Shown in pieces: positions 35,977 through 53,589 of a stretch of 64,000 nucleotides of DNA. The position numbers and the translations under genes are program-made. The first letter of the stretch is position 1. Each line of letters opens with the position of its first letter. Under the pieces are notes generated by a model. That model saw nothing but the letters and a program-made list of their open reading frames with translations, was not told the origin of the DNA and searched no databases. This DNA comes from Dehalococcoidia bacterium (GTDB lineage: Bacteria; Chloroflexota; Dehalococcoidia; Lucifugimonadales; UBA3495), in assembly GCA_034422655.1 (NCBI GenBank), contig DAOUJN010000039.1, forward strand, positions 80,937 through 144,936, read 5' to 3'.

Positions 35977-36246
35977 GTAACACCTCCGGATGAAGCGCCC
36001 TGTTTGGGCCGATTGGGGAAGACTGAATCGGCGCCCTGAGTACCAAATACAAGGCAGATGCCAGTGTCCCCCTTCCGCATGGGAGCAACTTCGGCAGAGT
36101 ATAGATTTCACATAATGCGATGTCAAACCGAATGTAAATGCGTTTGCACCGGCAGCCATGGTTACGATACCGGGCAAATTAAAGGGCCCGAGGGGATAAA
36201 ATCCTGCTCGGGCCTTGCACTTTCCGGTTGCCGGGAGGAGCTATTT

Positions 36247-37876: not shown

Positions 37877-38659
37877 TTACATGCCCGTTTCGGCGGCCGA
37901 AGAGCGCATGGCGTTCAGGTAGTCGACGCTGGACGTCTGGAGCAGGGTGCCCACGTTACCGTGGAAGTACTGGACGCCCATGCCCAGGAACTTGGGCACC
38001 AGGTTGTCGGGGCAGCTTACGCCGGCGACACGGCCCGCGTCGCGGATAATCTTGACTCCCTTCTCCATCTGGGCCTGGACCTCCGGGTGGGTATTCTGCC
38101 CGGGGTAACCCATGGACTGGGAGAGGTCTCCGGAGCCAATGAAAAAGACGTCCACGCCGTCCACGGTAACCAGTTCCTCCAGGTTATCGATGGCTTCCAC
38201 CTCTTCCAGCATCAGGCATACCAAGGTGTTGGCGTTGGCGTCCTTTACGTAATCGGAGGTGGAACCGACGAACCCGTAACCCGCGGGACGCCCCCGGCTG
38301 AAGATGCCCCGGTGGCCTTCGGGATAGTACTTGACGGCATCCACGGCGGCCCTGGCCTCGTCGGCGGTGTTGACGTGGGGCACCTGCACGCCCCACGCTC
38401 CCCGGTCCAGGAAGGGGGCGATGATCTCGGGCTTGTTGGCCACCGGGCGGACTATTGGCGCAATGCCGCTGAGTTCGGCGGCGCGCACCATGTCCTCGGA
38501 GTTGTCCACGGTGATGGAGCCGTGCTCGTTATCGATGAGCACCCAGTCAAAGCCCAGGGCGCCCAGCATCTCCACGACGGGGGCAGAGGGAAAGGTAATC
38601 ATTACGCCGAAAACGGCCTTGCCCGCCTCCAGCTTGCTTTTAAGGGTGTTCTCCCGCAT
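37877..38659 (-). CDS. HpcH/HpaI-family aldolase
   Basis: ATG at 38659 after GAGAGGAG. GVMITFPSAPVVEMLGALGFDWVLIDNEHG motif. Confidence 0.85.
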   Translation of the reverse strand: MRENTLKSKLEAGKAVFGVMITFPSAPVVEMLGALGFDWVLIDNEHGSITVDNSEDMVRAAELSGIAPIVRPVANKPEIIAPFLDRGAWGVQVPHVNTADEARAAVDAVKYYPEGHRGIFSRGRPAGYGFVGSTSDYVKDANANTLVCLMLEEVEAIDNLEELVTVDGVDVFFIGSGDLSQSMGYPGQNTHPEVQAQMEKGVKIIRDAGRVAGVSCPDNLVPKFLGMGVQYFHGNVGTLLQTSSVDYLNAMRSSAAETGM

Positions 38660-38660
38660 G

Positions 38661-39209
38661 TTAGCTCCTCTCGCGCAGGCTGCGGCGGGCGCCGGTTGCG
38701 TCTTCGTCGTTAAAGGTGATTCGGCTGGGTTCCGTTTCGGGCAGCCGGTAAAGTCCGACGACATAGCGCCGCAAAAACGTGCCGGCAATGATGCCCGCAA
38801 TAGTTGATAAACCGGCCGACGTGGCCCCCGCCAGGACGGCCAACGGCTTAGTCTCCATCGCCTGGCCGTCCACGCTGTCCATCTGGATGATGGCGAAGAA
38901 AATACCCAGAGCAATGCCCGCTACTATAGCAATGATGGCGCCGATGATCAGGCCCCGGTACTTGGTCCACAGGCTCCGTTCGTGGTGCCAGATCATGGAT
39001 TCCGTGATTATTACCACCGCGGCTCCGGTCAATATTCCAATGACGCCCCAGCCGACCGCTTCGCCCATAAGGACGGGGGGCAGGTGCCGGGGATTGGGTT
39101 CGATGTAAAGCCAAAGCAGGCTGACCAGGGCCGCTATGGGTACCACGGCGATGCAGATGGCCACAATCGCCAGGACGAACAGGCCCGCTACCAACTTGTT
39201 GTCGTTCAA
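38661..39209 (-). CDS. Hypothetical polytopic membrane protein
   Basis: 5-6 TM. The stop lies 1 nt before the aldolase ATG. No family recognised. Confidence 0.45.
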   Translation of the reverse strand: MNDNKLVAGLFVLAIVAICIAVVPIAALVSLLWLYIEPNPRHLPPVLMGEAVGWGVIGILTGAAVVIITESMIWHHERSLWTKYRGLIIGAIIAIVAGIALGIFFAIIQMDSVDGQAMETKPLAVLAGATSAGLSTIAGIIAGTFLRRYVVGLYRLPETEPSRITFNDEDATGARRSLRERS

Positions 39210-39468: not shown

Positions 39469-39497
39469 TTGACATGCCCCGGTCGAGTGTATATATT
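39469..39497 (+). promoter_or_regulatory. Near-consensus promoter TTGACA-N17-TATATT
   Basis: Read directly from the sequence. Lies about 190 nt upstream of the SBP start, in an AT-rich divergent intergenic region. Confidence 0.6.
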
Positions 39498-39689
39498 GCT
39501 GTGGATTAAATTCGGCGGCAGTTTGCGAAGCCGTTTTCTATGCGTTTGGAACGCATTGGGAATGTCGTAAGTTTGTTATAGGAGGTGGTTTGCCTAAAGT
39601 ATGGGATATTATGAATAGTCCCTTGTCAGCCACTTCGCTGAATTTTGGACTACGAAGATCTGTTCCGATAGATTTGGAGGTTTTTGGAA

Positions 39690-41567
39690 ATGTCCAACCA
39701 TTGGTTTAAGGGATCTAAAGGACTTGTAATAGCGCCGATTCTGGTGATAGCGCTTCTGGCTGCTGTTGCCTGCGGTGCCGCCGCCACTGCGACGCCCGTG
39801 CCCACTGTGGCACCTACGGAGGCCCCGGCCCCCGAGCCTGCGCCGGCCGAAACGATGGCGGAGCCCACCGCGATGCCGGAAGCCATGCCCGAGCCTGCGG
39901 ATGACATGATGGCCGGTGCTAAAACCGCCCCGACCTTCGCGGAGTATTGGACGCCGGACACGGATTTCTATGGCGAACCCGTTTACGGCGGCACGCTCCG
40001 GATTAACTATGAAGACCCGCTGGAGCACGCCAACACCTGGGGCGCTTCCACCGGCGCCGCAACTCGTTTGCGGGGCGCCACTCACAACCGCATCGTTTCC
40101 GACAGCCCGTATGACAATACAAAGATCATTCCCGACCTGGCCAAGGGCTGGACCATTGACGACGATGTGGCCGGCGCCACCTTCTATTTCCACGATAATA
40201 TTACCTGGCATAACGGCGACCCATTCGTCTGCGAAGATGCTCGTTTCACCTTCGAGACGTGGATAACCGGCAAGGGCGTTACCGCCAGTTCCAATAAAGC
40301 AAACTTCAGCTTCATCGACATGGATAATTCCAGCTGCCTGGACGACCATACCCTGTACCTGAAGTACGAGGGTCCCACGGCGCCGGCGATGCTGGCTCTG
40401 ACCCGCTCCAATGCGCTCATGTTCAACAAGAACTGGTTCCTGGAGAACGGCGAGGATGCCATGTTCCAGGACCTTTCCATGGGGACCGGCCCCTACGTCT
40501 GGCAGGAAGGCCAGAGCGTTGGCATCGATGAGCAGAATTTCGACAGGAACCCCAACTACTTCAAGGGCAACGGCGCGCTGCCCTACGTGGACCATCTGGT
40601 CCTCTTCGGCATCCTGGACGAGACGACCCAGCAGGCCACCATGCTGGCCCACCAGACCGACTGGCACTGGGTCCGGAACTGGGGCCAGTACCGGGAGTAC
40701 GTTGACCACGAACAGATAATGACGGTGGTCCGGGCCACCCGCGGCCACTTCGAGATCTGGCTGAACGCCCGTAACGCTCCCTGGGACAACGTTCGCGTCC
40801 GCCAGGCCGTGTTCATGGGTATGGACCGCGAGGCTGGCATCCAGGTGCTGCAGGACGGCCACGGCGCCCAGGGCTTCGTCATGGTTCCCGGCGGCGCCTG
40901 GGCCTTGAGTGAGGAGCAAGGGTGCGCGGTTCCCGGCTGGTGCCAGGCCGCCGACATGGAAGCCCAGCGCCAGGAAGCCATCCAGATTCTGAACGAAGAG
41001 AACTTCGATTTCGACAAGACCTACCTGTTCACCGTTGAGTCCGACGCCCAGGTAGTGGCCCGCGCCACCTTCGTGCAGGAGCAGTTGCGCCTGTTGGGCA
41101 TCAAGACCGACTTCGACCAGGTGGAGACCGTAGCCTACCGGGAACAGGAAGCCAAGGGAACCTGGGGCGACTTCCTCCCCGGCAACGCCACAATGCCCAC
41201 CGACGATCCGGCCCTGGGCATGGGCTACTACTTCCGGTGCGACTCAGTGTCCAATCTCTGGACGCCGGGCGGCGTATGCGACGACGAAATGGAGTCACTG
41301 CTGGACCAGGCGCTGAGCGAAGGCGACCATGCCAGGCGGCAGGAAATCTCCGCCCAGATTCAGTTGAAGGCCATGAGGGAATACTGGAAGTACCCCTTGT
41401 ACTGGGAGCAGGAAGCCGTGGCTTTCTGGCCCGAGGTACGAGGCTACTTCCACCACCCGCAGCCTTCCGGCTCTCACACCCAGTACGAGCAGATGTGGAT
41501 TAACCCGGCCCACAAGGACGACCGGGACAACAGCGGCCAGACCACCGGCGTACCTGGAGGGGGCTAA
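39690..41567 (+). CDS. Family-5 ABC substrate-binding lipoprotein
   Basis: ATG at 39690 after GGAGG. Lipobox LAAVAC, a P/A/E/T tether, and an SBP_bac_5 core. Confidence 0.85.
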   Translation: MSNHWFKGSKGLVIAPILVIALLAAVACGAAATATPVPTVAPTEAPAPEPAPAETMAEPTAMPEAMPEPADDMMAGAKTAPTFAEYWTPDTDFYGEPVYGGTLRINYEDPLEHANTWGASTGAATRLRGATHNRIVSDSPYDNTKIIPDLAKGWTIDDDVAGATFYFHDNITWHNGDPFVCEDARFTFETWITGKGVTASSNKANFSFIDMDNSSCLDDHTLYLKYEGPTAPAMLALTRSNALMFNKNWFLENGEDAMFQDLSMGTGPYVWQEGQSVGIDEQNFDRNPNYFKGNGALPYVDHLVLFGILDETTQQATMLAHQTDWHWVRNWGQYREYVDHEQIMTVVRATRGHFEIWLNARNAPWDNVRVRQAVFMGMDREAGIQVLQDGHGAQGFVMVPGGAWALSEEQGCAVPGWCQAADMEAQRQEAIQILNEENFDFDKTYLFTVESDAQVVARATFVQEQLRLLGIKTDFDQVETVAYREQEAKGTWGDFLPGNATMPTDDPALGMGYYFRCDSVSNLWTPGGVCDDEMESLLDQALSEGDHARRQEISAQIQLKAMREYWKYPLYWEQEAVAFWPEVRGYFHHPQPSGSHTQYEQMWINPAHKDDRDNSGQTTGVPGGG

Positions 41568-41604
41568 CCCACCGGCTCATCAAATGAGTCAATTAGCATA
41601 AATG

Positions 41605-41640
41605 CAGGCCACTCACTTTCATGTGGGTGGCCTGTGTTAT
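41605..41640 (+). terminator. Hairpin attenuator between the SBP and permease genes
   Basis: CAGGCCAC-N14-GTGGCCTG followed by TGTTATAT. Confidence 0.4.
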
Positions 41641-41840
41641 ATCAGCAAATCTCTGTTGTGAAAAACCGATTTAGTAGCTGGATGTTGGTAATTCTTGAAG
41701 ATTGCCACCAAAATTAGGAAATTCCCCCCGAAATCAGAACTTTTCTCTTGTTTTTGTCGTATAATCTGACAACGGAAACCCTGGATTGACCCTGGACGGT
41801 CAGACATCAATTCCGGCAGGTTACCGGGGAGGTGCAGTAA

Positions 41841-42803
41841 ATGAGAACCTATCTGATTAAGCGGCTGCTTCTATTTGTTCCCACCGCTTTGTTGGTATCC
41901 GTCGTGATTTTCGGCGGGCTCCACATCATTCCCGGCGACTATGCCACGGTCCTTTTCCTGGGCAACGTAGAGGAGGCAGTTCAGGCCACTCCGGAGGAGA
42001 TTGAAGCCGTACGCGAGAAGCTGGGCCTCAATGGTTCTCCGCCTGAGCAATATGCCCGGTGGCTTGTCGAGTTTTTCAAGGGCGACTTTGGCACTTCCTG
42101 GACTAACCGAAAGCCGGTACTCGAGCGAATGGCGCCCCGTATTGCCCTTAGTGTCGAATTAGGCGCCCTGGCAATCGCCCTCGCCTGTATCCTGGGCACG
42201 GTGGGTGGAGTCATCTCCGCGGTGCGCCAGGATACCTGGATCGACTATATCCTGCGGGGTTGCAGCATGACCTTGCAGGCAATGCCCAGCTTCTGGCTGG
42301 CCCTCATGGTGATAATGGGGCTGGTTATAATATTCGGCTGGAAACCATCGATTGAATATCGTCACATCTGGGTAGACCCCGTGCGCAACCTCTCGGTGCT
42401 GTTGCTCCCAGCCTTCCTGGTAGGGCTGCGCAGTTCGGCCGAGATTTTACGGATGACCCGTTCCTCCGTACTGGAGGTGCTGCGGGAAGACTACGTGCGC
42501 ACTGCTGAGGCCAAGGGTCTGTACCGCTCCAAGGTGTTGGGAAGGCACGTGCTGCGTAATGCGCTGCTTCCGGTAACCACTTTGGCCGGATTTGAGATTG
42601 TGTTCGCGATGAGTGGCTCGGTAATCATCGAGTCGGTGTTCAACCTGCACGGCCTGGGCAAGCTCTTTATACAAGCGGTAGGCTCCAGGGACTACCCAGT
42701 GGTTCAGGCCATCGTCATGTTCGTGGCCATGGTGGTGCTTGTGGCCAACCTGGTGGTCGACATCATGTACGCCTGGCTGGACCCCAGAATCCGGTACACC
42801 TAG
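41841..42803 (+). CDS. ABC transporter permease (DppB-like)
   Basis: RBS GGAGGTG. MRTYLIKRLLLFVP start, EDYVRTAEAKG, and DPRIRY end. Confidence 0.85.
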   Translation: MRTYLIKRLLLFVPTALLVSVVIFGGLHIIPGDYATVLFLGNVEEAVQATPEEIEAVREKLGLNGSPPEQYARWLVEFFKGDFGTSWTNRKPVLERMAPRIALSVELGALAIALACILGTVGGVISAVRQDTWIDYILRGCSMTLQAMPSFWLALMVIMGLVIIFGWKPSIEYRHIWVDPVRNLSVLLLPAFLVGLRSSAEILRMTRSSVLEVLREDYVRTAEAKGLYRSKVLGRHVLRNALLPVTTLAGFEIVFAMSGSVIIESVFNLHGLGKLFIQAVGSRDYPVVQAIVMFVAMVVLVANLVVDIMYAWLDPRIRYT

Positions 42804-42935
42804 AGATGTGACACATTCTCGGAAGGGGGTTCCGCTTTACATTGGGGCCTCCCTCCGGCGAATAATCCAATGGCTGACCCGGGATTCAGCCCTTTCCGGT
42901 TGCCGAATTCGGCATTTTCGCGATGAGGAAATGAA

Positions 42936-43856
42936 ATGGCTACTCCAAATGAGACTACCAACGCCGAAACGATAAGAGAGAATCTGATTGCCTCAGAGCC
43001 GCCCCGGCGCCCTGGCATGTTCAAGTACATGCTCTATTACTTCAGGCACAAGCTGCTTGGCACGGTGGGCCTGATTATTTGTACGGTAATGATTCTCACG
43101 GCGATTTTCGCCGACGTAATCGCCCCTTATACCTACCAGGAGCAGAACTACGAGGCGGTGCTGGCCGCCCCGAGTACTGATTTCTTCTTCGGCACCGACA
43201 ACTTCGGCAGGGACATCTTCTCCCGGGTGGTGCATGGCGCCAGGATATCCATGCTGGTGGGATTTTTGGCCGTGATTGTGGGCACAGGAGTTGGCGCGAT
43301 TATCGGCCTGATTTCCGGGTTTTTCATGGGCAAGATCGACGCTATCGTTCAGAGAATTGTGGATGCGTGGATGTCCTTTCCGGACCTGATTCTGGCCCTG
43401 ACCATTGTGGCGGTGCTGGGAAACACCGTGCCCAACGTGATTTTCGCCATTGCCGCGACTATTTTGCCCCGCGGCGTACGGGTAATCCGGTCTTCCACCA
43501 TAGCGATCCGAGAAATGGACTACACCATGGCGGCCCGTTCCATCGGCGCCTCCGACTTGAGGACCATGGTGCGTCATATCATGCCCAATACTGTGGCGCC
43601 CTTCCTGATTATCATGTCGTCAATGTTTGGGACGGCGATTTTGACGGAGGCTGGTTTGAGCTACCTGGGCCTGGGTATTTCCGAGCCTACTCCCTCGTGG
43701 GGTAGGATGCTCACTGGACAAGCTGCCCAGTACGCGCCGTCAGCTCCCTGGATTCTCGCCTTCCCCGGCTTCTTCATTACCATAACGGTGATGGGCTTCG
43801 CCTTTTTCGGCGACGCGCTGCGGGACCTGTTTGACCCACGGCTGCGGGGGCGTTAG
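42936..43856 (+). CDS. ABC transporter permease (DppC-like)
   Basis: FADVIAPY...FGTDNFGRD motif and a BPD_transp_1 core. Confidence 0.85.
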   Translation: MATPNETTNAETIRENLIASEPPRRPGMFKYMLYYFRHKLLGTVGLIICTVMILTAIFADVIAPYTYQEQNYEAVLAAPSTDFFFGTDNFGRDIFSRVVHGARISMLVGFLAVIVGTGVGAIIGLISGFFMGKIDAIVQRIVDAWMSFPDLILALTIVAVLGNTVPNVIFAIAATILPRGVRVIRSSTIAIREMDYTMAARSIGASDLRTMVRHIMPNTVAPFLIIMSSMFGTAILTEAGLSYLGLGISEPTPSWGRMLTGQAAQYAPSAPWILAFPGFFITITVMGFAFFGDALRDLFDPRLRGR

Positions 43857-43896: not shown

Positions 43897-43928
43897 ATCT
43901 CCCCCGATTCGGGGGAGATTCCTTTTTT
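43897..43928 (+). terminator. Canonical rho-independent terminator
   Basis: ATCTCCCCCG-att-CGGGGGAGAT followed by TCCTTTTTTG. Confidence 0.8.
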
Positions 43929-44034: not shown

Positions 44035-44994
44035 GTGCGAAGCATAGACATTCATGCTCACGTCACACCGCAGTCCTATTTGAGCGCAATGAAGGAAGGA
44101 CGGGGGTGGCACGGGGTTGAACCCGAACCCCTGGATATTGAACCCCAGTTGGAATGGACGCCCGAACAGCGAATCAGGGACATGGACTCCCTGGGCGTGG
44201 ACGTTCAGGTGGCCTCCACGGGCGCCCAGTTTTACTACTACGGTAGGGACGGCCGGGAAATCGCCGCCATGCACCGGGAGTGCAACGACGAAGTCCACCA
44301 GATGACCATCGACCATCCGGACCGGTTCAAGGGCCTGGCCCAGATTCCCATGCAGGACGTGGACCTGGCCATTGCTGAGCTGGACCGCTGCGTCAACCGG
44401 CTGGGCATGGTGGGGGCGATGATCGACGACAAGGTAAACGGCAAGACCTTTGACGAGCCCGAGTTCCTGCCCCTGTGGAAGGCGGCGGAACAGATGGGCG
44501 CGGTCTTCCTGATCCACCAGGGCGGCGGAACGCTGGTTGCGCCCCGCACACGCAAATACCACCTGCCCAATACCATCGGCAACCTGGTGGACCGGGCCGT
44601 AACCTTCGCCTCCTTCGTAATGGGCGGCGTGATGGATGCCTGTCCTGATTTGAAGATTTGCCTGGCCCACGGCGGCGGCTACGCCTGCTACGGCGTTGGC
44701 CGCATGGACCGAAGCTGGGACGTGGGCCGCCTGCCCCAGATACCCCAGCCTCCCAGCGCCTACCTGAGCCGCTTCTATTACGATTGTCTGACCCACAGCG
44801 AATCGGCCCTGCGGATGCTCATCGACATGGCCGGCATCGACAAGGTGGTCTTCGGCACCGACTGGCCCTTCGACATGCAGATTGACTGGCCCGTTTCCTG
44901 GGTGCTGAGCCTGGAGAGCCTGACCCAGGACGAGAAGGAAGCCATCCTGTGGAAGAACATGGAGAAGCTGCTGGGAATAAGCAGCGACGATTAA
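44035..44994 (+). CDS. Amidohydrolase_2 (ACMSD/decarboxylase-type) family protein, paralog 1
   Basis: GTG start after GGAGG. MRSIDIHAH (HxH), IHQ, AHGGG, and GTDWPFD. Confidence 0.8.
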   Translation: MRSIDIHAHVTPQSYLSAMKEGRGWHGVEPEPLDIEPQLEWTPEQRIRDMDSLGVDVQVASTGAQFYYYGRDGREIAAMHRECNDEVHQMTIDHPDRFKGLAQIPMQDVDLAIAELDRCVNRLGMVGAMIDDKVNGKTFDEPEFLPLWKAAEQMGAVFLIHQGGGTLVAPRTRKYHLPNTIGNLVDRAVTFASFVMGGVMDACPDLKICLAHGGGYACYGVGRMDRSWDVGRLPQIPQPPSAYLSRFYYDCLTHSESALRMLIDMAGIDKVVFGTDWPFDMQIDWPVSWVLSLESLTQDEKEAILWKNMEKLLGISSDD

Positions 44995-45010
44995 GGAACT
45001 GGAGGTACCA

Positions 45011-45967
45011 GTGCGCAGCATAGATATACACGCCCACCTGACACCGCAGTGCTTCATCCATGCCATGCGGGAGGGACGCGAGTGGCACGGGGTCAAGCCC
45101 GGCGAAATGGGGATCGGCCCCCGTAACTCCTGGACTCCGGAGCAGCGCATCGACGACATGAACTCCCTGGGCGTTGACGTTCACGTGGTGTCCACCTTCA
45201 GCTTTTATTACTACTACGAACGGGACCCGCAGATAATCCTGCCCATGCACCGGGAGTGCAACGACGAGGTCTACCAGATGACGGTGGACTATCCCGACCG
45301 GTTCAAGGGAATGGCCATTATCCCCATGCAGGACGTAAAGCTGGCCGTCGGGGAACTGGACCGGTGCGTCAACGAAATGGGCTTCGTGGGCGCCATGATC
45401 GACGACCACGTCAACGGCAAGACCTACGACGAGCCGGAATTCATGCCCCTGTGGAAAGCCGCCGAGGAAATGGGCGCCGTACTGCTGGTCCACCAGCAGG
45501 GCGGGCGGACTCTGGTGCGGGACCGCAACCCCAACTATCACCTGCACAACACCATCGGCAACCTGGTGGACCGGGCGGTGACCTTCGCGTCCTTTGTCTT
45601 TGGCGGCGTCATGGACGCCTGCCCCGATTTGCGGGTCTGCCTGTGCCACGGCGGCGGTTACACCTGTTTCGGCGCCGGCCGCATGGACCGGGGCTGGCAG
45701 GTGCGGCCCGAGGCCCGGGTGAACATCAGCAACCCGCCCAGTTCCTACCTGAGCAAGTTTTACTACGACTGCCTGACCCACAGCGAGCCGGCCCTGCGGA
45801 TGCTGATTGACACCGTGGGCATCGACAAGGTCATTTTCGGAACGGACTGGCCGGCGGACATGATGATAGACTGGCCCGTGTCCTGGGTCCTGGGGCTGGA
45901 AAGCCTGACCCAGGAAGAGAAGGAAGCCATTCTCTACAAGAACCTGGAAAACCTGCTGGGCATCTGA
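45011..45967 (+). CDS. Amidohydrolase_2 family protein, paralog 2
   Basis: GTG start after GGAGG. Same ligand motifs. About 67% identical to paralog 1 over the first 60 aa by eye. Confidence 0.8.
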   Translation: MRSIDIHAHLTPQCFIHAMREGREWHGVKPGEMGIGPRNSWTPEQRIDDMNSLGVDVHVVSTFSFYYYYERDPQIILPMHRECNDEVYQMTVDYPDRFKGMAIIPMQDVKLAVGELDRCVNEMGFVGAMIDDHVNGKTYDEPEFMPLWKAAEEMGAVLLVHQQGGRTLVRDRNPNYHLHNTIGNLVDRAVTFASFVFGGVMDACPDLRVCLCHGGGYTCFGAGRMDRGWQVRPEARVNISNPPSSYLSKFYYDCLTHSEPALRMLIDTVGIDKVIFGTDWPADMMIDWPVSWVLGLESLTQEEKEAILYKNLENLLGI

Positions 45968-46022
45968 CCAGCGCCCAATCCACCGTGAATCCTGGCGCCT
46001 CCAAATTTCACAAGGGAACCCC

Positions 46023-46979
46023 ATGCGAAGCATAGATATTCACGCACATTCGACCCCCCAGTGCTTTCAGCGGGCGGTGCTGTCCGGCAACGACTGGCAC
46101 GGAATGACCGCCGCTGACGGCGAGCTTTTCAATCCCCGCAACGCCTGGACGCCCGACCAGCGCATCGCCGACATGGACTCCATCGGCGTGGACATCCAGG
46201 TGGTTTCCACCAACGCCGGTTTCTACCAGTACGGCAGGGACGTGGCGGTAACCGCCGCCATTTGCCGCGACTGCAACGACGAAATCCACCAGATGACCAT
46301 GGACTACCCTGATCGTTTGGCGGGCCTGGCCAACATTCCTATGCAGGATGCCAACGCGGCCATCGCCGAACTGGACCGGGCCGTCCACCAGCTTGGTTTC
46401 AAGGGCGCCATGATCGGCGACCAGGTCAACGGCAAGACCCATGACGAGCCCGAGTTTATGCCCATCTGGAAAGCGGCAGAGCAGATGGGGGCGGTCATCT
46501 TCATCCACCAGGGCGGCGGCACCATCGGTGCGAGACGGCAGCCCAGGTATCACGTTCTCAATACCATTGGCAACCCTTCCGACCGCGCCGTTACTTTCGC
46601 GTCCTTCACCTTCGGCGGCGTGATGGACAAGTGCCCCGACCTGAAGGTTATCCTGGCCCACGGCGGCGGCTACGCCTGCTTCGGCATCGGCCGCATGGAC
46701 CGGGGCTGGCAGGTGCGTTCCGAGGCCCGAGAGCACATCAACCGCCCGCCCAGCAGCTATCTCGACAAGTTCTACTACGACTGCCTCACCCACAGCGAAC
46801 CGGCCCTGCGAATGCTCATAGACTCGGTGGGCATCGACCGTGTGGTCCTGGGCAGCGACTGGCCTGCCGACATGAAGATTGACTGGCCCGTGTCCTGGGT
46901 GATGGGGCTGAAGAGCCTTACCCTGGACGAGAAGGAAGCCATTCTCTGGAAGAATTTGGAGAAGATGCTGGGGTTGTAG
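46023..46979 (+). CDS. Amidohydrolase_2 family protein, paralog 3
   Basis: MRSIDIHAH, IHQ, AHGGG, and GSDWPAD. Confidence 0.8.
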   Translation: MRSIDIHAHSTPQCFQRAVLSGNDWHGMTAADGELFNPRNAWTPDQRIADMDSIGVDIQVVSTNAGFYQYGRDVAVTAAICRDCNDEIHQMTMDYPDRLAGLANIPMQDANAAIAELDRAVHQLGFKGAMIGDQVNGKTHDEPEFMPIWKAAEQMGAVIFIHQGGGTIGARRQPRYHVLNTIGNPSDRAVTFASFTFGGVMDKCPDLKVILAHGGGYACFGIGRMDRGWQVRSEAREHINRPPSSYLDKFYYDCLTHSEPALRMLIDSVGIDRVVLGSDWPADMKIDWPVSWVMGLKSLTLDEKEAILWKNLEKMLGL

Positions 46980-47015
46980 CCCCACCGACACCGACCAAAC
47001 AGGAGCTTGAAATCC

Positions 47016-47978
47016 ATGCGTTCCATCGACATTCACGCCCATATCAGCCCCGAGGGTTACATTCGCGCGGTGGAGGCCGGAAGGGAGTGGTATGGCATCA
47101 GCGGCATGTCCCATGAGTTTCACATGGCGGTGCCGCGCACCATGTGGACTCCGGAGCAGCGGCTTACCGACATGGACTCCCTGGGCGTGGACGTCCACGT
47201 TCTGTCCACCAACGCCGTCTTGTATTGCTACGACCGGGACGCCAACACCGTTGCCGCCATGGACCGGGAGTGCAATGACTACGTGTCACAGCTGACCAAA
47301 GACCATCCCGACCGGTTCGCCGGCCTGGCCAACCTGCCCATGCAGGACGTGCCCGCCGCCGCCACCGAACTGGAACGGGCCATGACCCAGCTGGGGCTGA
47401 AGGGCGCGATGATTGACGACAGCGTCAACGGCAAGACCTACGACAATCCCGAGTTCTTCCCCGTCTGGGAGGTGGCCGAGCAGACCGGCGCGGTCATCCT
47501 GATTCACCAGGGCATGCAGACCGTGGTGGGGGACCGCTCCACCCGCTACCACCTGCCCAACACCATCGGCAACCTGGTGGAGCGGGCCATTACCTACGCC
47601 TCATTCGTATTCGGCGGGGTGATGGACAGGTACCCGGGGCTGCGGGTATGCCTGTCCCACGGCGGCGGTTACACCTGCTTCGGCGCCGGGCGCATGGACC
47701 GGGGCTGGCAGGTGCGGTCGGAGGCGCGGGTCAACATAAACAGGCCCCCCAGCGCCTACCTGGACCGCTTCTGGTACGACTGCCTTACCCACAGCGAACC
47801 GGCCCTGCGGATGCTCATCGACTCGGTGGGTATCGACAAGGTAATCTTCGGCACCGACTGGCCCTTCGACATGCAAATCGACTGGCCCGTGTCCTGGGTG
47901 CTGGGCCTGGAAAGCCTGACCCAGGACGAAAAGGAAGCGATACTTTATCGGAACCTGGAAAACCTGTTGGGGATTTAA
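47016..47978 (+). CDS. Amidohydrolase_2 family protein, paralog 4
   Basis: ATG at 47016 after AGGAG (the ORF opens at 47007). Same motifs. Confidence 0.8.
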   Translation: MRSIDIHAHISPEGYIRAVEAGREWYGISGMSHEFHMAVPRTMWTPEQRLTDMDSLGVDVHVLSTNAVLYCYDRDANTVAAMDRECNDYVSQLTKDHPDRFAGLANLPMQDVPAAATELERAMTQLGLKGAMIDDSVNGKTYDNPEFFPVWEVAEQTGAVILIHQGMQTVVGDRSTRYHLPNTIGNLVERAITYASFVFGGVMDRYPGLRVCLSHGGGYTCFGAGRMDRGWQVRSEARVNINRPPSAYLDRFWYDCLTHSEPALRMLIDSVGIDKVIFGTDWPFDMQIDWPVSWVLGLESLTQDEKEAILYRNLENLLGI

Positions 47979-48047
47979 GGTAAGAGCAAGTGACGGCAGC
48001 TCGAATGAGCGAATCCGATAATTTGGCAAGTTACGTTCCATTTCTAC

Positions 48048-48415
48048 CGTCATTCCGGCGAAAGCCGGAATCCAGAAGGCGGTACCGATGAAACAACCTT
48101 GCGTTTACATCCTCGCGAGCAAGCGGAACGGCACGCTTTACGTGGGTGTGACTTCTGATCCAGTCAAAAGGATCTGTCAACACAAGAATAACTTTGCGCC
48201 AGGATTCAGCAGCAGGTACGGTACCCACCTGTTGGTGTGGTACGAACTTCACGAAAACATGGAAAGCGCAATTACCCGCGAAAAGAGGCTTAAGGACTGG
48301 AATCGCCCCTGGAAGCTGGTGTTGATAGAGAAGGACAACCCCACATGGCGGGATTTGTACCCTGACATTGTCGGGACTTAAGCATTCCTGGATTCCGGCT
48401 TTCGCCGGAATGACG
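48048..48415 (+). mobile_element. GIY-YIG nuclease cassette bounded by perfect 28-bp inverted repeats
   Basis: Left end CGTCATTCCGGCGAAAGCCGGAATCCAG (48048..48075). The right end (48388..48415) is its exact reverse complement. Each end is itself a hairpin (ATTCCGGC-gaaa-GCCGGAAT). AT-richer than its flanks. Confidence 0.6.
48088..48381 (+). CDS. GIY-YIG (URI-domain, COG2827/UPF0213-type) nuclease
   Basis: CVYILASKRNGTLYVGVTSD...R...H...E..LK pattern of the small GIY-YIG family. Confidence 0.8.
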   Translation: MKQPCVYILASKRNGTLYVGVTSDPVKRICQHKNNFAPGFSSRYGTHLLVWYELHENMESAITREKRLKDWNRPWKLVLIEKDNPTWRDLYPDIVGT

Positions 48416-48486
48416 CTAAATGTTTGGTGGTTTGAGTCCGGTTTTCAAGAAATTATCCTTGTAATGCAAATACAGGAGACATGCAA

Positions 48487-49482
48487 ATGCGCAGCATAGA
48501 CATCCACGCCCACATTGCGCCGCTGGCGGCGGCCCAACTGCCCGAGGGGCAGACCTGGCACGGTTTCACCCGCCGGGAAATGAACGGGCGGCAATTCCTG
48601 GTGCAGGGCGACAAACGCCAGTGGCTCCATCCCGCCTACTCCCTCACCGCCGATGAGCGCATCGCCTACATGGACTCGGTGAACGTGGACATACACGTCC
48701 TCACCACCTGGGTGGGCATGTACAACTACGACCTGCCCGGCGACGTGGGCGCGGGGATCGCCCGGGAGTGCAACGACTACGTGGCGGGATTGACGCGCTC
48801 CCATCCCGACCGGTTTGCCGGCATGGCCACCCTGCCCATGCAGGACGTGGGCGCCGCCGTCGCGGAACTGGAGCGTTCCGTCAACCAACTGGGCCTGAAG
48901 GGGGCGCAGATTGCCGACCACGTCAACAACAAGACCCTGGACCACGAGGACTTCATCCCCTTCTGGTCGGCAGCGGAGCAGCTTGGGGCGTTGATTTTCT
49001 TCCACCAGGAGGGCGACGATACCATCGTCAAGCCCCGGGACACCAAGGGCTGGGCCATCGACAACTCCATCGGCAACCTCTCCGACCGTGTGGTTACCTT
49101 CGGCACCCTGGTATTCGGCGGGGTGCTGGACCGCTTCCCCGACCTGAAGGTGTGCCTGGCCCACGGCGGCGGGTTCACCTGCTTCGGCGCCGGCCGCCTG
49201 GACCGGGGCTGGCAGGTGCGCTCGGAAGCCCGGGAACTGGGCGCCAACATTCCCAGCACCTATCTCAACAAGGTCTACTATGACTGCCTGACCCACAGCG
49301 AAGCGGTGCTGCGGTACATGATCGACTCGGCGGGCATCGACCGCATCTTCCTGGGCAGCGACTACCCCTACGACATGGGCATTGACGAACCCACCGCCTG
49401 GGTGAACAGCCTGGAGAGCCTTACCCAGGACGAGAAGGACGCCATTCTCTGGAAGAACCTGGAAAGGGTGTTGGGTGTCTAG
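48487..49482 (+). CDS. Amidohydrolase_2 family protein, paralog 5 (most divergent)
   Basis: MRSIDIHAH, FHQ, AHGGG, and GSDYPYD. The ORF opens at 48481 (MQM...). Confidence 0.8.
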   Translation: MRSIDIHAHIAPLAAAQLPEGQTWHGFTRREMNGRQFLVQGDKRQWLHPAYSLTADERIAYMDSVNVDIHVLTTWVGMYNYDLPGDVGAGIARECNDYVAGLTRSHPDRFAGMATLPMQDVGAAVAELERSVNQLGLKGAQIADHVNNKTLDHEDFIPFWSAAEQLGALIFFHQEGDDTIVKPRDTKGWAIDNSIGNLSDRVVTFGTLVFGGVLDRFPDLKVCLAHGGGFTCFGAGRLDRGWQVRSEARELGANIPSTYLNKVYYDCLTHSEAVLRYMIDSAGIDRIFLGSDYPYDMGIDEPTAWVNSLESLTQDEKDAILWKNLERVLGV

Positions 49483-49519
49483 AAGAGAGATTCCTGCGAG
49501 GTAATACGGTGAGAAATGC

Positions 49520-49557
49520 GGGGCAGCCAATACGGTTGCCCCGGCGTGTTTCTATTT
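49520..49557 (+). terminator. Terminator after the amidohydrolase array
   Basis: GGGGCAGCC-aatac-GGTTGCCCC followed by a T-rich run. Confidence 0.5.
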
Positions 49558-51158: not shown

Positions 51159-52526
51159 GTGGACATTACCAGCCGTATCGCGGAGTACGTTACCGACCTC
51201 GGAATCGAGGACTTCCCGCCCGAAGCGGTGGAGGCTGCCAGGGGAGCGATCATGGACTGCCTGGCCTGCATGCTGGCCGGCAGCAGGGAAGACCTGGCCG
51301 ACATACTCTGCCGCTACGTCGCCGCCGAGAGCGCCGCCCCCGTTGCCGGCGTGGTGGGCAGAGGCTTCAAGACTTCGGCGGCCAACGCGGCCCTGGTTAA
51401 CGGGGCTATGGCCCACGCGCTGGACTACGACGACATTACCCAGGTTACGAAGACGCACCCCACGGCCGTCCTGCTGCCGGCCGCGCTGGGCGTGGCGGAG
51501 GAAGCGGGGGCTTCCTGCCGGGAACTGCTGCTCGGCTATATGACCGGCTTCGAGGTGGCCTGCGCCGTGGGCGAGTCCTTGAGCGAAGCCTATTACGATG
51601 ACCTGGGCTGGCATCCCACCGGCCCGCTGGGCGCTGTCGGGGCAGCGGCGACGGCCAGCAAGATTATGGGCCTGGACGCAGAGCGCACGGCTATGGCCAT
51701 TTCCCTGGCGGCTTCCCAGGCATCGGGGCTGCGGCAGAACTTCGGCACCATGACCAAGCCCTTCCACGCCGGCGACGCCGCCCGGGCCGGGGTGGCTGCG
51801 GCCCGGCTGGTGCGGGCGGGCTTTACCGCCAGTCCGGACGCGCTGGAGGGCCGGTTCGGGTTCATCCGTGCCTTCTCAGGCGGGCAGGGTTTCGACGCCG
51901 CGGAGGTTGTGCAAAACCTGTCTAGCAAATGCTACCTGGTCGAATCGGGCATCGAAATCAAGAAGTACCCCTGCTGCGGCAGCGCCCACCTGGCCCTGGA
52001 CGCCACCTTCAGCCTGCTGTCCCACGGCGACATTGACCCCCGAGCGGTGGACAGAATAGAAGTGATGGTGGACTTCGACCCGCCTCGCTCGCTGATACAC
52101 TCCCGCCCCACGTCGTCGCTGGAGGGCAAGTTCAGCATGCAGTACTGCCTGGCCGCCGCCCTGCTGGATCGCCGGGTGGGGCTGCAGTCCTTTTCCGACG
52201 AGCAGGTACTGAGGCCCGAGGCCCAGGCGCTGATTCCGCGCATAGATATGCAGCGCATTCCGGGGAACGAGGGCAAACCCAGCTGGACCGAGGGCTACCA
52301 CCAGGTTGACGTATACCTGAAGGACGGCGCCGTGCTAAGGGGGGAGGCCCATCGAGCCAGCAGCGGCGCCCTGAGGGGTGTAACCATGGACGACATCCGG
52401 GAGAAGTTCCAGGACTGCGCCTTGCAGAATCTGCCCGATGCAACGGTGGCGATGCTACTGGACTGCCTGGGCCGGCTGGACGAAGCGGAACCGGTCAGCG
52501 AACTGGCGGACCTGCTCCGGGGCTGA
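51159..52526 (+). CDS. MmgE/PrpD family protein
   Basis: GTG start after GGAGG. AxxAIMDCLACMLAG, ALDYDD, HP motif, and full length of 455 aa. Confidence 0.85.
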   Translation: MDITSRIAEYVTDLGIEDFPPEAVEAARGAIMDCLACMLAGSREDLADILCRYVAAESAAPVAGVVGRGFKTSAANAALVNGAMAHALDYDDITQVTKTHPTAVLLPAALGVAEEAGASCRELLLGYMTGFEVACAVGESLSEAYYDDLGWHPTGPLGAVGAAATASKIMGLDAERTAMAISLAASQASGLRQNFGTMTKPFHAGDAARAGVAAARLVRAGFTASPDALEGRFGFIRAFSGGQGFDAAEVVQNLSSKCYLVESGIEIKKYPCCGSAHLALDATFSLLSHGDIDPRAVDRIEVMVDFDPPRSLIHSRPTSSLEGKFSMQYCLAAALLDRRVGLQSFSDEQVLRPEAQALIPRIDMQRIPGNEGKPSWTEGYHQVDVYLKDGAVLRGEAHRASSGALRGVTMDDIREKFQDCALQNLPDATVAMLLDCLGRLDEAEPVSELADLLRG

Positions 52527-52578: not shown

Positions 52579-53364
52579 TCAGCCGCTGGCGAAAATCTCG
52601 TTGGCGATGTCCATGGCCTCCCGGGCAAAGGGTATGCCGGCATAGAGCGTCATGTGCCCGAACACCTCAATTACCTGGTCTTTGGTCAGGCCGATGTTAA
52701 GGGCGCCGCGGATGTGGCCCCGCAGGGGACCGTGGCGGCCCAGGGTCGCCAGGCAGGTCATGGTGCAGAGGCAGCGGCTGGTAACGTCCAGGCCCGGCCG
52801 GGTCCAGGTTGCTCCCCAGTAGTATTCCCCGGTGGTGCGGCCCAGTTCCCTCTCCGCATCCGTGGGCGGGGCCGGTCGCGACGTGGCGCCGCCACCCATG
52901 TAGTTGCGGCGGTACTCGTCGCCCCGCTGGAACAGGCTGTCCGGGTCTTCGTTTGAGTCGTGGATGCGGGCCGGCGTGAAGTCTATGCCGCGCTCCTCGA
53001 ACACCTGCTTGCACAGCGACAGCGCCTGGATGCCGGCCGGTGCCCCGCTGTACCAGGTGTCGTGGATAATCAACTCCACCACCTGCTCCGGCGTCAGGCC
53101 GATGTTGAGGGCGTTGCCCAGGTGCCGCTTCAACTGGACTTCCCGGTTGGTAACTATGAGGCATGACAGCGTGATCATCTCCCGCTGCATGGGTGTCAGC
53201 GCGGGACGCCGCCAGATGGTGCCGAACAGCGCCTCCCCCAGGATTCGCTCCAGGTCGGGCGCAATCTCCCATGCCCCCGGCGCGGACCAGCCGGTGATTT
53301 CACCGCCGCCAAACATTCGCCGCGTTTCCCTGCCGCGTTCATACCGGTCGTCCAGTTCACTCAT
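52579..53364 (-). CDS. Double-domain carboxymuconolactone decarboxylase (CMD) family protein
   Basis: ATG at 53364. Two CMD-like halves, each with a (L)xRE..T..CL....R..QL.(G/R)H..GALN(I)GLT pattern. Confidence 0.7.
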   Translation of the reverse strand: MSELDDRYERGRETRRMFGGGEITGWSAPGAWEIAPDLERILGEALFGTIWRRPALTPMQREMITLSCLIVTNREVQLKRHLGNALNIGLTPEQVVELIIHDTWYSGAPAGIQALSLCKQVFEERGIDFTPARIHDSNEDPDSLFQRGDEYRRNYMGGGATSRPAPPTDAERELGRTTGEYYWGATWTRPGLDVTSRCLCTMTCLATLGRHGPLRGHIRGALNIGLTKDQVIEVFGHMTLYAGIPFAREAMDIANEIFASG

Positions 53365-53513
53365 AGCGTACCTCCATACCTGGCGATGCCAAAGCTCGAA
53401 TGCTGACAGTCTAAGTCGGCACTTCCCAATACGCAACGCCGAGAGTACAGGAACAGGCCGGGGCGCAAAGGCACTCGGGGGAACCGACATGGCTACTTGA
53501 AAGCGGAAGGGAA

Positions 53514-53589
53514 TGGCGTCCCAGGCAGGATTCGAACCCGCGACCCGCTGCTTAGAAGGCAGCCGCTCTATCCACTGAGCTACTGGGAC
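53514..53589 (-). tRNA. tRNA-Arg (anticodon UCU) with encoded CCA
   Basis: Manual cloverleaf: acceptor GTCCCAG/CTGGGAC, D stem GCTC/GAGC, anticodon stem GCTGC/GCAGC with loop CTTCTAA, T arm GCGGG-TTCGAAT-CCTGC, discriminator G, and CCA. Confidence 0.9.

Follow-up and report, generated by a model that had tools for sequence, protein, structure and literature searches.

An ordered array of five ACMSD-like amidohydrolase genes beside a family-5 ABC importer in a marine SAR202 bacterium

The nearest described relative, in both sequence and fold, of the five tandem enzymes reported here is ACMSD (EC 4.1.1.45; human 4ofc/4igm, Pseudomonas fluorescens 2hbv), which is of similar length. The COG2159 decarboxylases LigW, gamma-resorcylate decarboxylase (gamma-RSD), 2,3-DHB decarboxylase, IDCase and PicC share with them the Pfam family, the TIM barrel and the His/His/Asp core (PicC: 10.1101/457895) but, at E 1e-31 to 1e-20, stand much further away. 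These show that the family acts on aromatic and N-heteroaromatic carboxylates, and gamma-RSD and PicC carry EEH, and LigW EEA, in place of the HxH retained in the array (10.1101/457895). At the level of the organismal group, paralog expansions are described in SAR202 for COG4948 enolases, COG2141 FMNOs, COG3618, COG3836 and COG0667 (Saw et al. 2020 PMC6946804; Lim et al. 2023 PMC10444878), and the multiplied catabolic enzymes are thought to broaden the range of usable organic compounds. The list of most abundant COG categories in SAR202 includes COG2159, COG0747, COG0601, COG1173, COG0346, COG3836 and COG0667, which cover nearly all gene types of the array locus. That SAR202 genomes have multiplied COG2159 is thus on record at the count level, and the array is only moderately novel because COG2159 is among these abundant COGs. 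In the literature searched, the described SAR202 expansions are copy-number counts and not arrays; COG2159 is not discussed in the SAR202 main texts searched and is missing from two supplement sets, and nowhere in this literature did we find a tandem array described that has five members in fixed order and 1:1 orthologs, or its linkage to an SBP5 importer.

The homoprotocatechuate and gentisate lower pathways provide the nearest matches to two neighbouring genes. The FAH-family enzyme has maleylpyruvate hydrolase as its best PDB match (6jvv, matched along the full length at E 1e-42), followed by HpaG (1e-38), and the aldolase is closest to HpaI, both as the best NCBIfam match (E 8e-51, under the curated cut-off) and, together with YfaU, as a top PDB match (about 5e-42). 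However, the NCBIfam matches of the locus are all under curated cut-offs, and the conserved unit is without the ring-cleavage dioxygenase (none is evident), dehydrogenase or isomerase set. We know of no characterised hpa or gentisate cluster with this gene order. The preliminary description had recognised no characterised pathway in it either, and the literature and databases searched yielded no array of orthologs to which a pathway has been assigned.

The window, the whole 64,000-nucleotide stretch of DNA that was analysed, derives from a marine SAR202 (Chloroflexota) bacterium that is probably sponge-associated. Positions 44035-49482 are occupied by five PF04909 (Amidohydro_2) genes, A1 to A5, all on the forward strand (Table 1), and the Pfam domain covers each of the 318-331 aa products end to end (E 3e-34 to 4e-46). 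The architecture reported from first inspection is borne out: all five proteins begin M/V-RSIDIHAH (A1 and A2 having GTG starts), the first four genes are separated by 16, 55 and 36 nt, and all five products contain the HxH, (I/V/F)HQ, (A/C/S)HGGG and (T/S)D(W/Y)P motifs. Each gene has a Shine-Dalgarno-like GGAG(G)/AGGGA sequence of its own 5-10 nt upstream. Pairwise identities are 54-74% for protein and 63-85% for DNA, with no long identical stretch among the five genes, and A5 is the most divergent copy (54% identity to A1).

Table 1. Features of the array locus, in order of position in the window.
Feature	Coordinates	Strand	Remarks
Aldo/keto reductase (AKR), last gene of divergent unit	36714-37721	-	PF00248 E 1e-42
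HpcH/HpaI-type class II aldolase	37877-38659	-	PF03328 E 3e-29; likely start MRENT...; mechanical ORF extends to 38914
Conserved predicted membrane protein, 182 aa, first gene of divergent unit	38661-39209	-	Hydrophobic segments
Sigma-70-like promoter match TTGACA-17-TATATT	39469-39497	+	11/12 positions; consensus match only
Family-5 solute-binding protein (SBP5; Dpp/Opp/Nik type)	39684-41567	+	PF00496 E 2e-46
ABC permease 1 (DppB-like)	41841-42803	+	PF00528 + PF19300; 76-92% identity in five-copy loci
ABC permease 2 (DppC-like)	42936-43856	+	PF00528 + PF12911; 83-94% identity in five-copy loci
Intrinsic-terminator hairpin and U tract	43897-43919	+	10-bp stem; dG -22.7 kcal/mol, z -4.2
Paralog A1	44035-44994	+	GTG start, 319 aa; PF04909 E 4e-46; dN/dS 0.062
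Paralog A2	45011-45967	+	GTG start, 318 aa; PF04909 E 3e-40; dN/dS 0.061
Paralog A3	46023-46979	+	ATG start, 318 aa; PF04909 E 1e-45; dN/dS 0.065
Paralog A4	47016-47978	+	ATG start (mechanical ORF start TTG 47007), 320 aa; PF04909 E 2e-44; dN/dS 0.094
Inserted cassette between A4 and A5	48045-48418	+	GIY-YIG ORF between 31-nt inverted repeats
Paralog A5	48487-49482	+	ATG start (mechanical ORF start ATG 48481), 331 aa; PF04909 E 3e-34; dN/dS 0.086
Terminator-like hairpin after A5	49519-49543	+	10-bp stem, 8 GC pairs; dG -26 kcal/mol, z -3.9
Single-module VOC/glyoxalase-fold protein, 129 aa	49623-50012	+	PF00903 E 1e-14
FAH-family enzyme, 307 aa	50080-51003	+	PF01557 E 8e-46
MmgE/PrpD-family protein, variable accessory	51159-52526	+	PF03972 + PF19305
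Double-CMD (PcaC-like) protein, variable accessory	52579-53490	-	PF02627, two stretches
tRNA-Arg(TCT)	53514-53589	-	ARAGORN + Rfam, 70 bits; borders variable PrpD/CMD segment

The 502-nt gap between A4 and A5 contains a cassette that was not mentioned in the preliminary description. A 97 aa GIY-YIG ORF (48088-48381; PF01541 E 2e-16) is bordered by inverted repeats that are 97% complementary, and the cassette is present at this junction in only three related loci. It does not belong to the enzyme system.

A close relationship to ACMSD is seen at several levels. Profile comparison with the PDB places human ACMSD (E 3e-61) and Pseudomonas ACMSD (2e-44) at the top ranks, with LigW (1e-31), LigY (3e-18), LigJ (6e-15), gamma-RSD and IDCase well below. 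An AF2 model of A3 (pLDDT 80, pTM 0.84), in which pLDDT falls below 50 precisely in the two active-site loops (166-185 and 215-239), has human ACMSD as its best fold match (TM 0.81, about 31% identity). The four shared motifs are the counterparts of the metal ligands and the catalytic His of ACMSD, and H6, H8, H174, D291, H224 and R235* (human numbering, the asterisk marking the neighbouring subunit) are invariant in the five orthogroups across 22 arrays, such that the initial assignment to ACMSD-type amidohydrolase_2 paralogs stands with the catalytic residues intact. The A5 insertion is full-length and aligns with the insertion domain of ACMSD, which is about 14 residues longer than that of A1-A4.

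The array proteins nonetheless differ from ACMSD at positions that matter for its substrate. ACMSD Arg47 (human)/Arg51 (Pseudomonas) and Trp191/194 are not kept, the Trp position being an invariant Asn, and the ACMSD HPWD is replaced by HQGG plus 2-3 residues; these replacements suggest that the substrate, and possibly the reaction, differ from those of ACMSD. A phylogeny with characterised members, as first proposed, resolves five orthogroups and sets the A1-A5 clade apart from both ACMSDs, on a long branch whose bootstrap support is 100/100. No NCBIfam model matches A1-A5, and the clade contains no characterised member, the closest homologs from cultured bacteria (plasmid records only) being about 37% identical and without assigned function. 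There are no 3-hydroxyanthranilate dioxygenase, aminomuconate-pathway or kynurenine-pathway genes among the scanned neighbours. Judged by their sequences, A1-A5 are ACMSD-like COG2159 enzymes of one uncharacterised clade and not ACMSD proper.

Comparison with related genomes, another of the proposed checks, shows that 19 species-representative SAR202/Dehalococcoidia genomes have 1:1 orthologs of A1-A5 arranged in the same order, and the five-copy array is found across many independent assemblies, complete long-read chromosomes among them. Orthologs are 79-98% identical whereas paralogs are 54-74% identical, every orthogroup has a neighbour-joining bootstrap of 100/100, and dN/dS is 0.06-0.09 for each copy. 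The array copies are old, and each has been conserved separately, under purifying selection. Remoter genomes carry one or two to four copies after the same SBP5-permease-permease module, and where a single copy is present behind this importer it is of the A4 type; the occurrence of one to four copies behind the same importer implies that each copy is useful alone. Locus L013, a relative with a five-copy-type array, has no A3 but retains the other copies intact.

The differences between orthogroups are not evenly placed. Nine alignment columns are fixed inside orthogroups but have at least three states between them, and seven of the nine are within three residues of an ACMSD active-site residue (1.4 expected, P = 4.5e-5), where the test measures proximity in sequence and not 3D distance and the ±3 window is the analyst's choice. 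Two-state columns show no such enrichment in the same test. The lid (insertion) domain also varies in length and sequence between copies. This placement of orthogroup-distinguishing positions beside active-site residues fits a substrate-diversified battery. The original proposal of such a battery acting on aromatic or heteroaromatic carboxylates is supported as regards diversification; the substrate class is conjectural, and the partner SBP5 importer weighs against it. To our knowledge, aromatic acids do not usually enter through SBP5 importers (peptide-, opine- or nickel-type).

The SBP-permease-permease importer upstream of the array and the strong terminator between them are both present as first described. 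SBP5 is always 5' of the arrays and the importer adjoins every array type. No ABC ATPase gene adjoins the importer or array, and matches of the SBP to peptide, opine and nickel binders are weak. The hairpin separating importer from array is conserved in its stem, with varying loops, in 9 of 20 five-copy loci (window included). The sigma-70-like match lies in the AT-rich divergent intergenic region, where promoter-like sites are not above the chance number. Of the divergently transcribed genes, the membrane protein matches no Pfam or NCBIfam family, has about four hydrophobic segments (judged by eye from the translation), and is syntenic in almost all SBP-linked loci; the aldolase is syntenic in related loci (74-92% identity) and the AKR in most five-copy loci (66-84%). 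An unrelated bacterium (locus L025) has a 79% identical copy of the aldolase directly 3' of an array-family member. Genes for both subunits (alpha and beta) of a Rieske dioxygenase and for an SDR are located 16 kb upstream.

The VOC, FAH, MmgE/PrpD and double-CMD genes listed earlier are all present downstream, although the CMD gene is on the opposite strand and both it and PrpD are variable accessories. VOC, whose FosB/glyoxalase matches are weak and none specific, is 3' of the array in every five-copy locus reaching that far (86-99% identity), and FAH follows VOC without exception in those extending far enough. PrpD, with iminodisuccinate epimerase (1e-62) and IRG1/cis-aconitate decarboxylase (1e-57 to 1e-44) as its best PDB matches, occurs in the window and in only three other five-copy loci. 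The CMD protein falls just under the curated PcaC cut-off (149 bits versus 155.7; PDB 4g9q, E 1e-28) and is in no other five-copy locus examined, but is present 3' of three distant arrays. The conserved partners are SBP-permease-permease, VOC and FAH and, divergently, the membrane protein, HpaI-like aldolase and AKR.

A plausible scenario, and one we consider reasonably probable, is that A1-A5 are substrate-diversified, independent metal-dependent lyases, most likely decarboxylases, whose products would pass to FAH and the HpaI-like aldolase. Each would be a TIM barrel in which HxH, His161 and Asp276 (A1 numbering) bind a single divalent metal, Zn or Mn, with His212 as the probable catalytic base and Arg223, contributed by the other subunit of a homodimer, holding the substrate carboxylate. 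The likeliest reaction would be a non-oxidative decarboxylation in which the carboxylate is borne by an sp2 carbon beside an enol, hydroxyl or amino group and the route, hydration or protonation, is that of ACMSD; the chief alternative chemistry is a hydration as in LigJ. The array may have arisen by old tandem duplications within a locus that started as the importer and one enzyme, the copies then diverging at a few pocket-proximal residues and in the lid domain so as jointly to cover several related substrates, presumably taken up by the adjacent importer. Products could then be processed by VOC and FAH (acylpyruvate-hydrolase-like) and by the divergent aldolase and AKR, ending in pyruvate and small aldehydes or acids. 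Counting against this scenario are the replaced substrate-binding residues of ACMSD, the strong terminator between importer and array, and the conserved unit's lack of an evident ring-cleaving dioxygenase.

It is unlikely that A1-A5 are instead LigJ- or LigY-type hydratases or C-C hydrolases acting on 2-oxo-3-enoate or meta-cleavage-type intermediates to supply 4-hydroxy-2-oxo acids to the aldolase. LigJ and LigY are detected relatives in the same Pfam family, a hydratase-aldolase pairing would account for both the amidohydrolase-HpcH pair of L025 and the conserved divergent aldolase, and the substrate-binding Arg and Trp of ACMSD are missing; however, similarity to ACMSD in sequence and fold is far above that to LigJ/LigY, and HxH, His, Asp, His and Arg* form the ACMSD set. 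We would give little credence to the five enzymes catalysing successive steps on one scaffold, such as regiospecific decarboxylations of a polycarboxylated aromatic or alicyclic molecule, rather than acting on five parallel substrates. The gene order fixed across the 19 genomes would suit such a series, as would polycarboxylate-handling accessories in some genomes (PrpD, near iminodisuccinate epimerase and cis-aconitate decarboxylase, and PcaC-like CMD). But an ACMSD-type decarboxylation, as far as is known, depends every time on an activating group adjacent to it, which counts against such a series, as do the stand-alone usefulness implied by arrays of one to four copies and the otherwise intact array of L013.

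Because an Arg of the neighbouring subunit completes the ACMSD active site, mixed dimers could create combinatorial active sites, and A1-A5 might be subunits of hetero-oligomers. The invariance of this trans-subunit Arg (R235*/R239*) in all five proteins, the tight packing of co-directional genes and the precedent of the heteromeric PF04909 enzyme AibH1H2 (PMC10811679) speak for this, but the catalytic set is complete in each protein, relatives of the AibH1H2 type are distant (E 1e-10 or weaker), copy number ranges from one to five and A3 can be lost, and we regard it as very improbable. That the copies are redundant and serve gene dosage, or are an artefact of assembly collapse or expansion, is supported only by their tandem co-directional arrangement and is refuted by the DNA identity of only 63-85% without long identical stretches, the recurrence of the order in independent assemblies, the 100/100 bootstraps and the fixed orthogroup-specific residues.

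Diversified, independently acting lyases are the reading we prefer, and the array is a real and testable case of catabolic gene-family expansion in SAR202 rather than a new kind of system.

The array comprises five co-directional genes (A1 to A5) encoding ACMSD-like amidohydrolases of 318-331 residues, each of which opens with M/V-RSIDIHAH and has a Shine-Dalgarno-like sequence of its own. For A4 and A5 the properly spaced ATG is the one giving MRSIDIHAH, in agreement with the orthologs. The gaps from A1 to A4 are just 16, 55 and 36 nt, and the 502 nt between A4 and A5 contain a 97-aa GIY-YIG ORF. Protein identity to A1 is 54-74%, pairwise DNA identity among the five genes is 63-85% with no long identical stretch, and no sixth copy is found in the window. 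All five proteins match PF04909 (Amidohydro_2) at 119-158 bits (cut-off 26.4) over profile positions 1 to 288 or 289, and are full-length members of PF04909/COG2159; an NCBIfam scan of the five returns no family, even at an E of 0.01. The ORFs, ribosome sites, gaps, full-profile matches and identities thus bear out the preliminary description, which had reported five co-directional MRSIDIHAH ORFs with these short gaps.

Coordinates of the array and of other features of the window
Feature	Coordinates	Strand	Remark
917-aa ankyrin-repeat protein gene and arylsulfotransferase-family gene	21022-24916	-	adjoining
Aromatic-oxidation gene set	24913-28755	-	16 kb upstream of array
Luciferase-like monooxygenase	24913-25761	-	
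Rieske dioxygenase beta subunit	25875-26486	-	
Rieske ring-hydroxylating dioxygenase alpha subunit	26608-27882	-	
SDR	28003-28755	-	
SBP-permease-permease module	32066-36177	-	Dpp/Opp-type
Membrane protein	38661-39209	-	182 aa, predicted
SBP-permease-permease module	39684-43856	+	Dpp/Opp-type
SBP	39684-41567	+	
A1	44035-44994	+	GTG start
A2	45011-45967	+	GTG start
A3	46023-46979	+	
A4	47016-47978	+	
GIY-YIG cassette	48045-48418		
GIY-YIG ORF	48088-48381	+	97 aa
A5	48487-49482	+	
PrpD/CMD variable segment	51159-53589		
tRNA-Arg(TCT)	53514-53589	-	border of variable segment
Third copy of hairpin motif	59478-59500		2 mismatches

A scan of one genome per species yields 445 relatives, nearly all in metagenome-assembled genomes of Dehalococcoidia/SAR202 and including 'SAR202 cluster bacterium bin22'. 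Many of these genomes carry the labels RHO, IRC or SB, which from the names would be sponge sample codes. Searches with tblastn and the fetched loci show that A1 to A5 are present in identical order, with one clear ortholog each (79-98% identity), in 19 species-representative genomes, and the complete chromosome L001 also has the five-gene array; several further arrays are interrupted at contig ends. In a neighbour-joining tree each orthogroup (the orthologs of one paralog across loci) has bootstrap support of 100/100, and the clade as a whole stands apart from the human and Pseudomonas ACMSDs on a long branch, also supported at 100/100. The internal branches among the paralogs are very short, and A5 branches first in only 56/100 replicates, too few to set an order of duplication. 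When each window gene is compared with an ortholog, dN/dS is 0.06-0.09 for all five at a dS of about 0.85. The conserved orthologs, the fully supported orthogroups and the low dN/dS together exclude an assembly collapse or expansion, a recent amplification and pseudogenes. The 445 relatives, and several genomes that combine an array with an unlinked sixth copy, place these genes in a multi-copy family of SAR202.

The AF2 model of A3 (pLDDT 80 and pTM 0.84, with two active-site loops weak) retrieves only family members among its top 50 Foldseek matches (TM 0.70-0.81), the best of which is human ACMSD (TM 0.81, 31% identity). This predicted fold, with HxH, His and Asp invariant, agrees with a (beta/alpha)8 barrel that has its metal ligands at the ends of strands 1, 5(6) and 8. 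A profile of the five proteins searched against the PDB also finds human ACMSD first (3e-61) and Pseudomonas ACMSD next (2e-44), followed by LigW, gamma-resorcylate decarboxylase, IDCase, LigY, PtmU3 and LigJ, from 1e-31 down to 1e-15.

Aligning the human and Pseudomonas ACMSDs with 22 arrays shows where the two groups agree and where they part. The zinc ligands His9, His11, His177 and Asp294 and the catalytic His228 (Pseudomonas fluorescens numbering, Pf) are invariant in all five orthogroups, as is the Arg contributed by the neighbouring subunit (Arg239* in Pf, R235 in the human enzyme, Hs). In contrast, Arg51 (Pf; human counterpart Arg47), an insertion-domain residue described as essential for catalysis in the titles of PDB entries 4ifk and 4ign, falls in a poorly aligned region where the window A1 to A5 have D, G, a gap, H and W, respectively. 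Its placement varies among three alignment methods, none of which gives a conserved Arg; Arg is the weakly conserved majority residue in the A2 orthogroup, and A2 to A4 have a conserved Arg, in a 'PR' motif, a few residues downstream. The column of the active-site Trp (Trp194 in Pf, Trp191 in Hs) is an invariant Asn in all five orthogroups, the Ala of the Pseudomonas chain used here (8yt2) being the W194A mutation. HPWD is replaced by HQGG plus a short insertion in the window clade, and, relative to ACMSD, A1 to A4 lack about 14 residues of the insertion domain, which A5 has at full length. No genes for 3-hydroxyanthranilate 3,4-dioxygenase or the 2-aminomuconate pathway are present among the scanned ORFs of the window (about 21-59 kb) or in the syntenic loci. 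The invariant metal, His and Arg core and the loss of Arg51/47 and Trp191/194 thus identify A1 to A5, at the level of sequence, as members of the ACMSD-like branch of COG2159 that have a competent catalytic core but are not ACMSD, and whose substrate must differ from that of ACMSD.

Two other identities were considered. The amidohydrolase-related dinuclear oxygenases (AROs) AibH2, PtmU3 and SfbO, whose metal site has six ligands (three His and three carboxylates), would be recognised by an adjacent small Rieske or reductase partner (PMC10811679). No small Rieske gene occurs in the conserved unit, and similarity of the window profile to PtmU3 (3e-17) and to SfbO-type chains (1e-8 to 8e-17) is far weaker than to ACMSD, so an oxygenase of this kind is unlikely. 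The SAR202 fucose and rhamnose pathways employ COG3618 amidohydrolases with HpcH aldolases, AKRs and FAH hydrolases, and the FAH, aldolase and AKR neighbours of the array would by themselves be compatible with a sugar-lactonase pathway. The five enzymes are COG2159/ACMSD-like, and no COG3618 chain (LigI, the 2-pyrone-4,6-dicarboxylate lactonase, or fuconolactonase) is named among the 51 PDB matches of the five-protein profile at E <= 1e-3; a sugar-lactonase identity is therefore rejected.

The preliminary description had also proposed that the copies are diversified for substrate, and differences between the orthogroups go some way towards this. Just nine alignment columns reach at least 85% fixation in each orthogroup while taking three or more states among orthogroups, and seven of them are no more than three residues from an ACMSD active-site residue (1.4 of nine expected by chance; P = 4.5e-5), with distance taken along the sequence, not in 3D, and the three-residue span chosen by the analyst. 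These seven directly follow HxH, adjoin the Arg47 position, come just ahead of the Trp191 position, precede the catalytic His or follow the metal-binding Asp. In A1 numbering the orthogroup-specific residues are 10, 11, 33, 39, 177, 178, 211 and 279. Columns with two states, mostly separating A5 from the rest, show no enrichment near the active site. We regard this comparison of columns as supportive of diversification, not decisive.

The five-copy loci, which carry A1 to A5 in order, share a constant set of neighbours: an SBP gene and two permease genes upstream on the same strand, genes for a 129-aa VOC protein and an FAH-family protein downstream, and a divergent unit encoding a 182-aa membrane protein, an HpcH/HpaI aldolase and an AKR. 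The VOC and FAH genes of the context first described after the array are therefore constant, whereas PrpD and CMD are variable: PrpD is shared by the window and three related five-copy loci, and CMD is in no other five-copy locus, recurring after three distant arrays. The double-CMD gene is present as described, but it is coded on the minus strand. In most related genomes there are only small ORFs between FAH and a B12-binding gene where the window has PrpD and CMD, a segment bordered by a tRNA-Arg gene. The closest solved relatives are maleylpyruvate hydrolase (1e-42, full length) and then HpaG for FAH, HpaI and YfaU for the aldolase, and 4-carboxymuconolactone decarboxylase for CMD. For the PrpD-like protein they are iminodisuccinate epimerase and cis-aconitate decarboxylase rather than 2-methylcitrate dehydratase, VOC has no specific match among solved structures, and no neighbour match reaches a curated NCBIfam cut-off.

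Promoter and terminator counts overall are not above chance, and of the predicted elements we used just the two strongest hairpins, one of which lies 3' of A5. The other is an intrinsic terminator between permease 2 and A1 (-22.7 kcal/mol, z -4.2), whose stem recurs with different loops in 9 of 20 five-copy loci, the window counted among them; given this terminator, separate transcription of the array and the importer, or attenuation, is probable. An Rfam scan for a riboswitch or leader finds only a tRNA.

Peptide, agropinic-acid and nickel binders match the SBP only weakly, and the persistent linkage of the enzymes to a peptide/opine-type importer is not accounted for by the earlier idea of aromatic carboxylate substrates. 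The window SBP is only about 57-62% identical to those of most syntenic five-copy loci (L003-L039), rising to 81-83% in L017 and 93% in L012, whereas across the same loci the neighbouring permeases are 76-94% and the enzymes 79-98% identical. By this comparison the SBP appears to have been exchanged or to be diversifying faster than the rest of the locus; L017 and L020 have two tandem SBP genes. The window has two Dpp/Opp-type modules within 12 kb, neither with an ABC ATPase gene beside it, and the related locus L082 has two oligo_HPY-type ATPase genes on the opposite strand, at a distance of about 8 kb; ATPases may be shared between importer modules. The predicted membrane protein, which has no family assignment, is conserved at the head of the divergent unit, where its stop codon and the start codon of the aldolase gene are 1 nt apart. 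Nearly every importer-linked locus has it, even where there is just one copy of the enzyme.

In remoter Dehalococcoidia an SBP5-permease-permease module of the same kind precedes a smaller number of copies. Some have two copies, one A2-like and one A3-like, others have three or four, and six loci combine the same divergent membrane-protein/aldolase unit and importer with a single A4-like copy. Many genomes have an extra unlinked copy elsewhere, which in the one locus scanned (L064) is near an AKR, a nucleoside hydrolase and MFS transporters. In a few loci a single member of the array has been lost or damaged: L013 lacks A3 (12011-13048), A3 is split by a frameshift in L017 (13193-14135), possibly through sequencing error, and an A5-like copy in L058 (11414-12400) has an internal stop. 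Copies 75-77% identical to A2/A3 are found in Entotheonellaceae, an unclassified bacterium and a Nitrospinota MAG (L023; L025, 4573-6435; L049, 10059-12030). In the unclassified bacterium (L025) an HpcH aldolase 79% identical to that of the window is directly 3' of the enzyme gene, and these two observations suggest that the enzyme-aldolase pair moved horizontally between phyla. Among plasmids, the best relatives are about 37% identical 'amidohydrolase family' proteins of Burkholderia/Paraburkholderia, which cluster with monooxygenases and a Mo-hydroxylase, an arrangement suggestive of N-heteroaromatic catabolism.

On either side of the GIY-YIG ORF between A4 and A5 is a 31-nt inverted repeat, the two arms being 97% complementary and each containing a CCGGC-GAAA-GCCGG hairpin, and a third copy of the hairpin motif is present 11 kb away. 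The ORF is at the same junction in only three related genomes (L017, L026 and L037), and the element looks like a small mobile or selfish cassette. Other selfish genes lie between or just after the paralogs elsewhere (L001, 7039-8752 and 11053-14444; L002, 11020-12218; L052, 12323-14067), namely two Uma2 endonucleases, an N6_N4 methylase-HNH fusion, HTH_73, and an SfiI-type restriction enzyme with its methylase. These insertions leave the paralogs in order, and the intergenic regions of the array seem to be recurrent insertion sites. Upstream of the array in the window there is a set of aromatic-oxidation genes, and an ankyrin-repeat gene adjoins one of the arylsulfotransferase family. Eukaryote-like repeat proteins are reported among the symbiosis-related features of sponge Chloroflexi (PMC6306507), and the ankyrin-repeat gene thus fits a sponge-symbiont origin of the window.

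On balance we favour the interpretation that A1 to A5 are five ACMSD-like lyases, most likely decarboxylases, which have a mononuclear metal site, work independently, are diversified in substrate and are fed by the importer. The adjacent importer would bring in related compounds on which the five enzymes act, and their products would pass through VOC, FAH, the aldolase and the AKR to yield pyruvate and small fragments. As an alternative, hydratase or C-C hydrolase chemistry is unlikely. It is distinctly improbable that the five act sequentially on one polycarboxylated scaffold, and the variation in copy number and the loss of single members argue against an obligate sequence. Hetero-oligomeric enzymes formed by A1 to A5 are more doubtful still, the same variation and losses arguing against obligate complexes, and redundancy or artefact is scarcely credible. 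A bolder proposal, which we hold to be improbable, is that the array is a 'decarboxylation battery' for recalcitrant organic matter rich in carboxyl groups or for polycarboxylated metabolites from sponges, working by removal of different carboxyl groups one after another from a single imported scaffold or through mixed dimers with trans-Arg. If so, the SBP5 importer would represent a hitherto unrecognised way of taking up such compounds, and with mixed dimers the shared trans-Arg active sites would provide more specificities than genes.

Paralog expansions are known in SAR202 (PMC6946804; PMC10444878), and COG2159 and the COGs of nearly every other gene of the locus are listed among the most abundant SAR202 COGs (Saw 2020, PMC6946804). 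COG2159 is not discussed in the searchable SAR202 texts or mentioned in the supplements of Bayer 2018 and Lim 2023, and the literature on SAR202 amidohydrolases, on COG2159/PF04909 and on ACMSD in Chloroflexi or sponges has no account of the array. In the literature searched we find no earlier description of its fixed order, its clade-specific residues or its linkage to an importer.

The locus offers a compact test case, with five small soluble enzymes that have an intact, well-understood core and fall into clearly separated orthogroups, one importer binding protein open to ligand screening, and downstream enzymes that point to pyruvate-yielding cleavage. SAR202 bacteria, an abundant group in sponges and the deep ocean, are thought to oxidise organic matter left over by other microbes by means of multiplied enzyme families; to our knowledge, the substrate is known for almost none of these families. 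The decarboxylase family is used for the reversible carboxylation of phenols and heteroaromatics. The array thus provides a clean, experimentally tractable way into the substrate range of SAR202. Identification of its substrates would reveal which compounds these symbionts take up, would bring new specificities to a decarboxylase family that is of interest for biocatalysis, and would give a dated example of a catabolic locus growing from one to five enzymes by tandem duplication.
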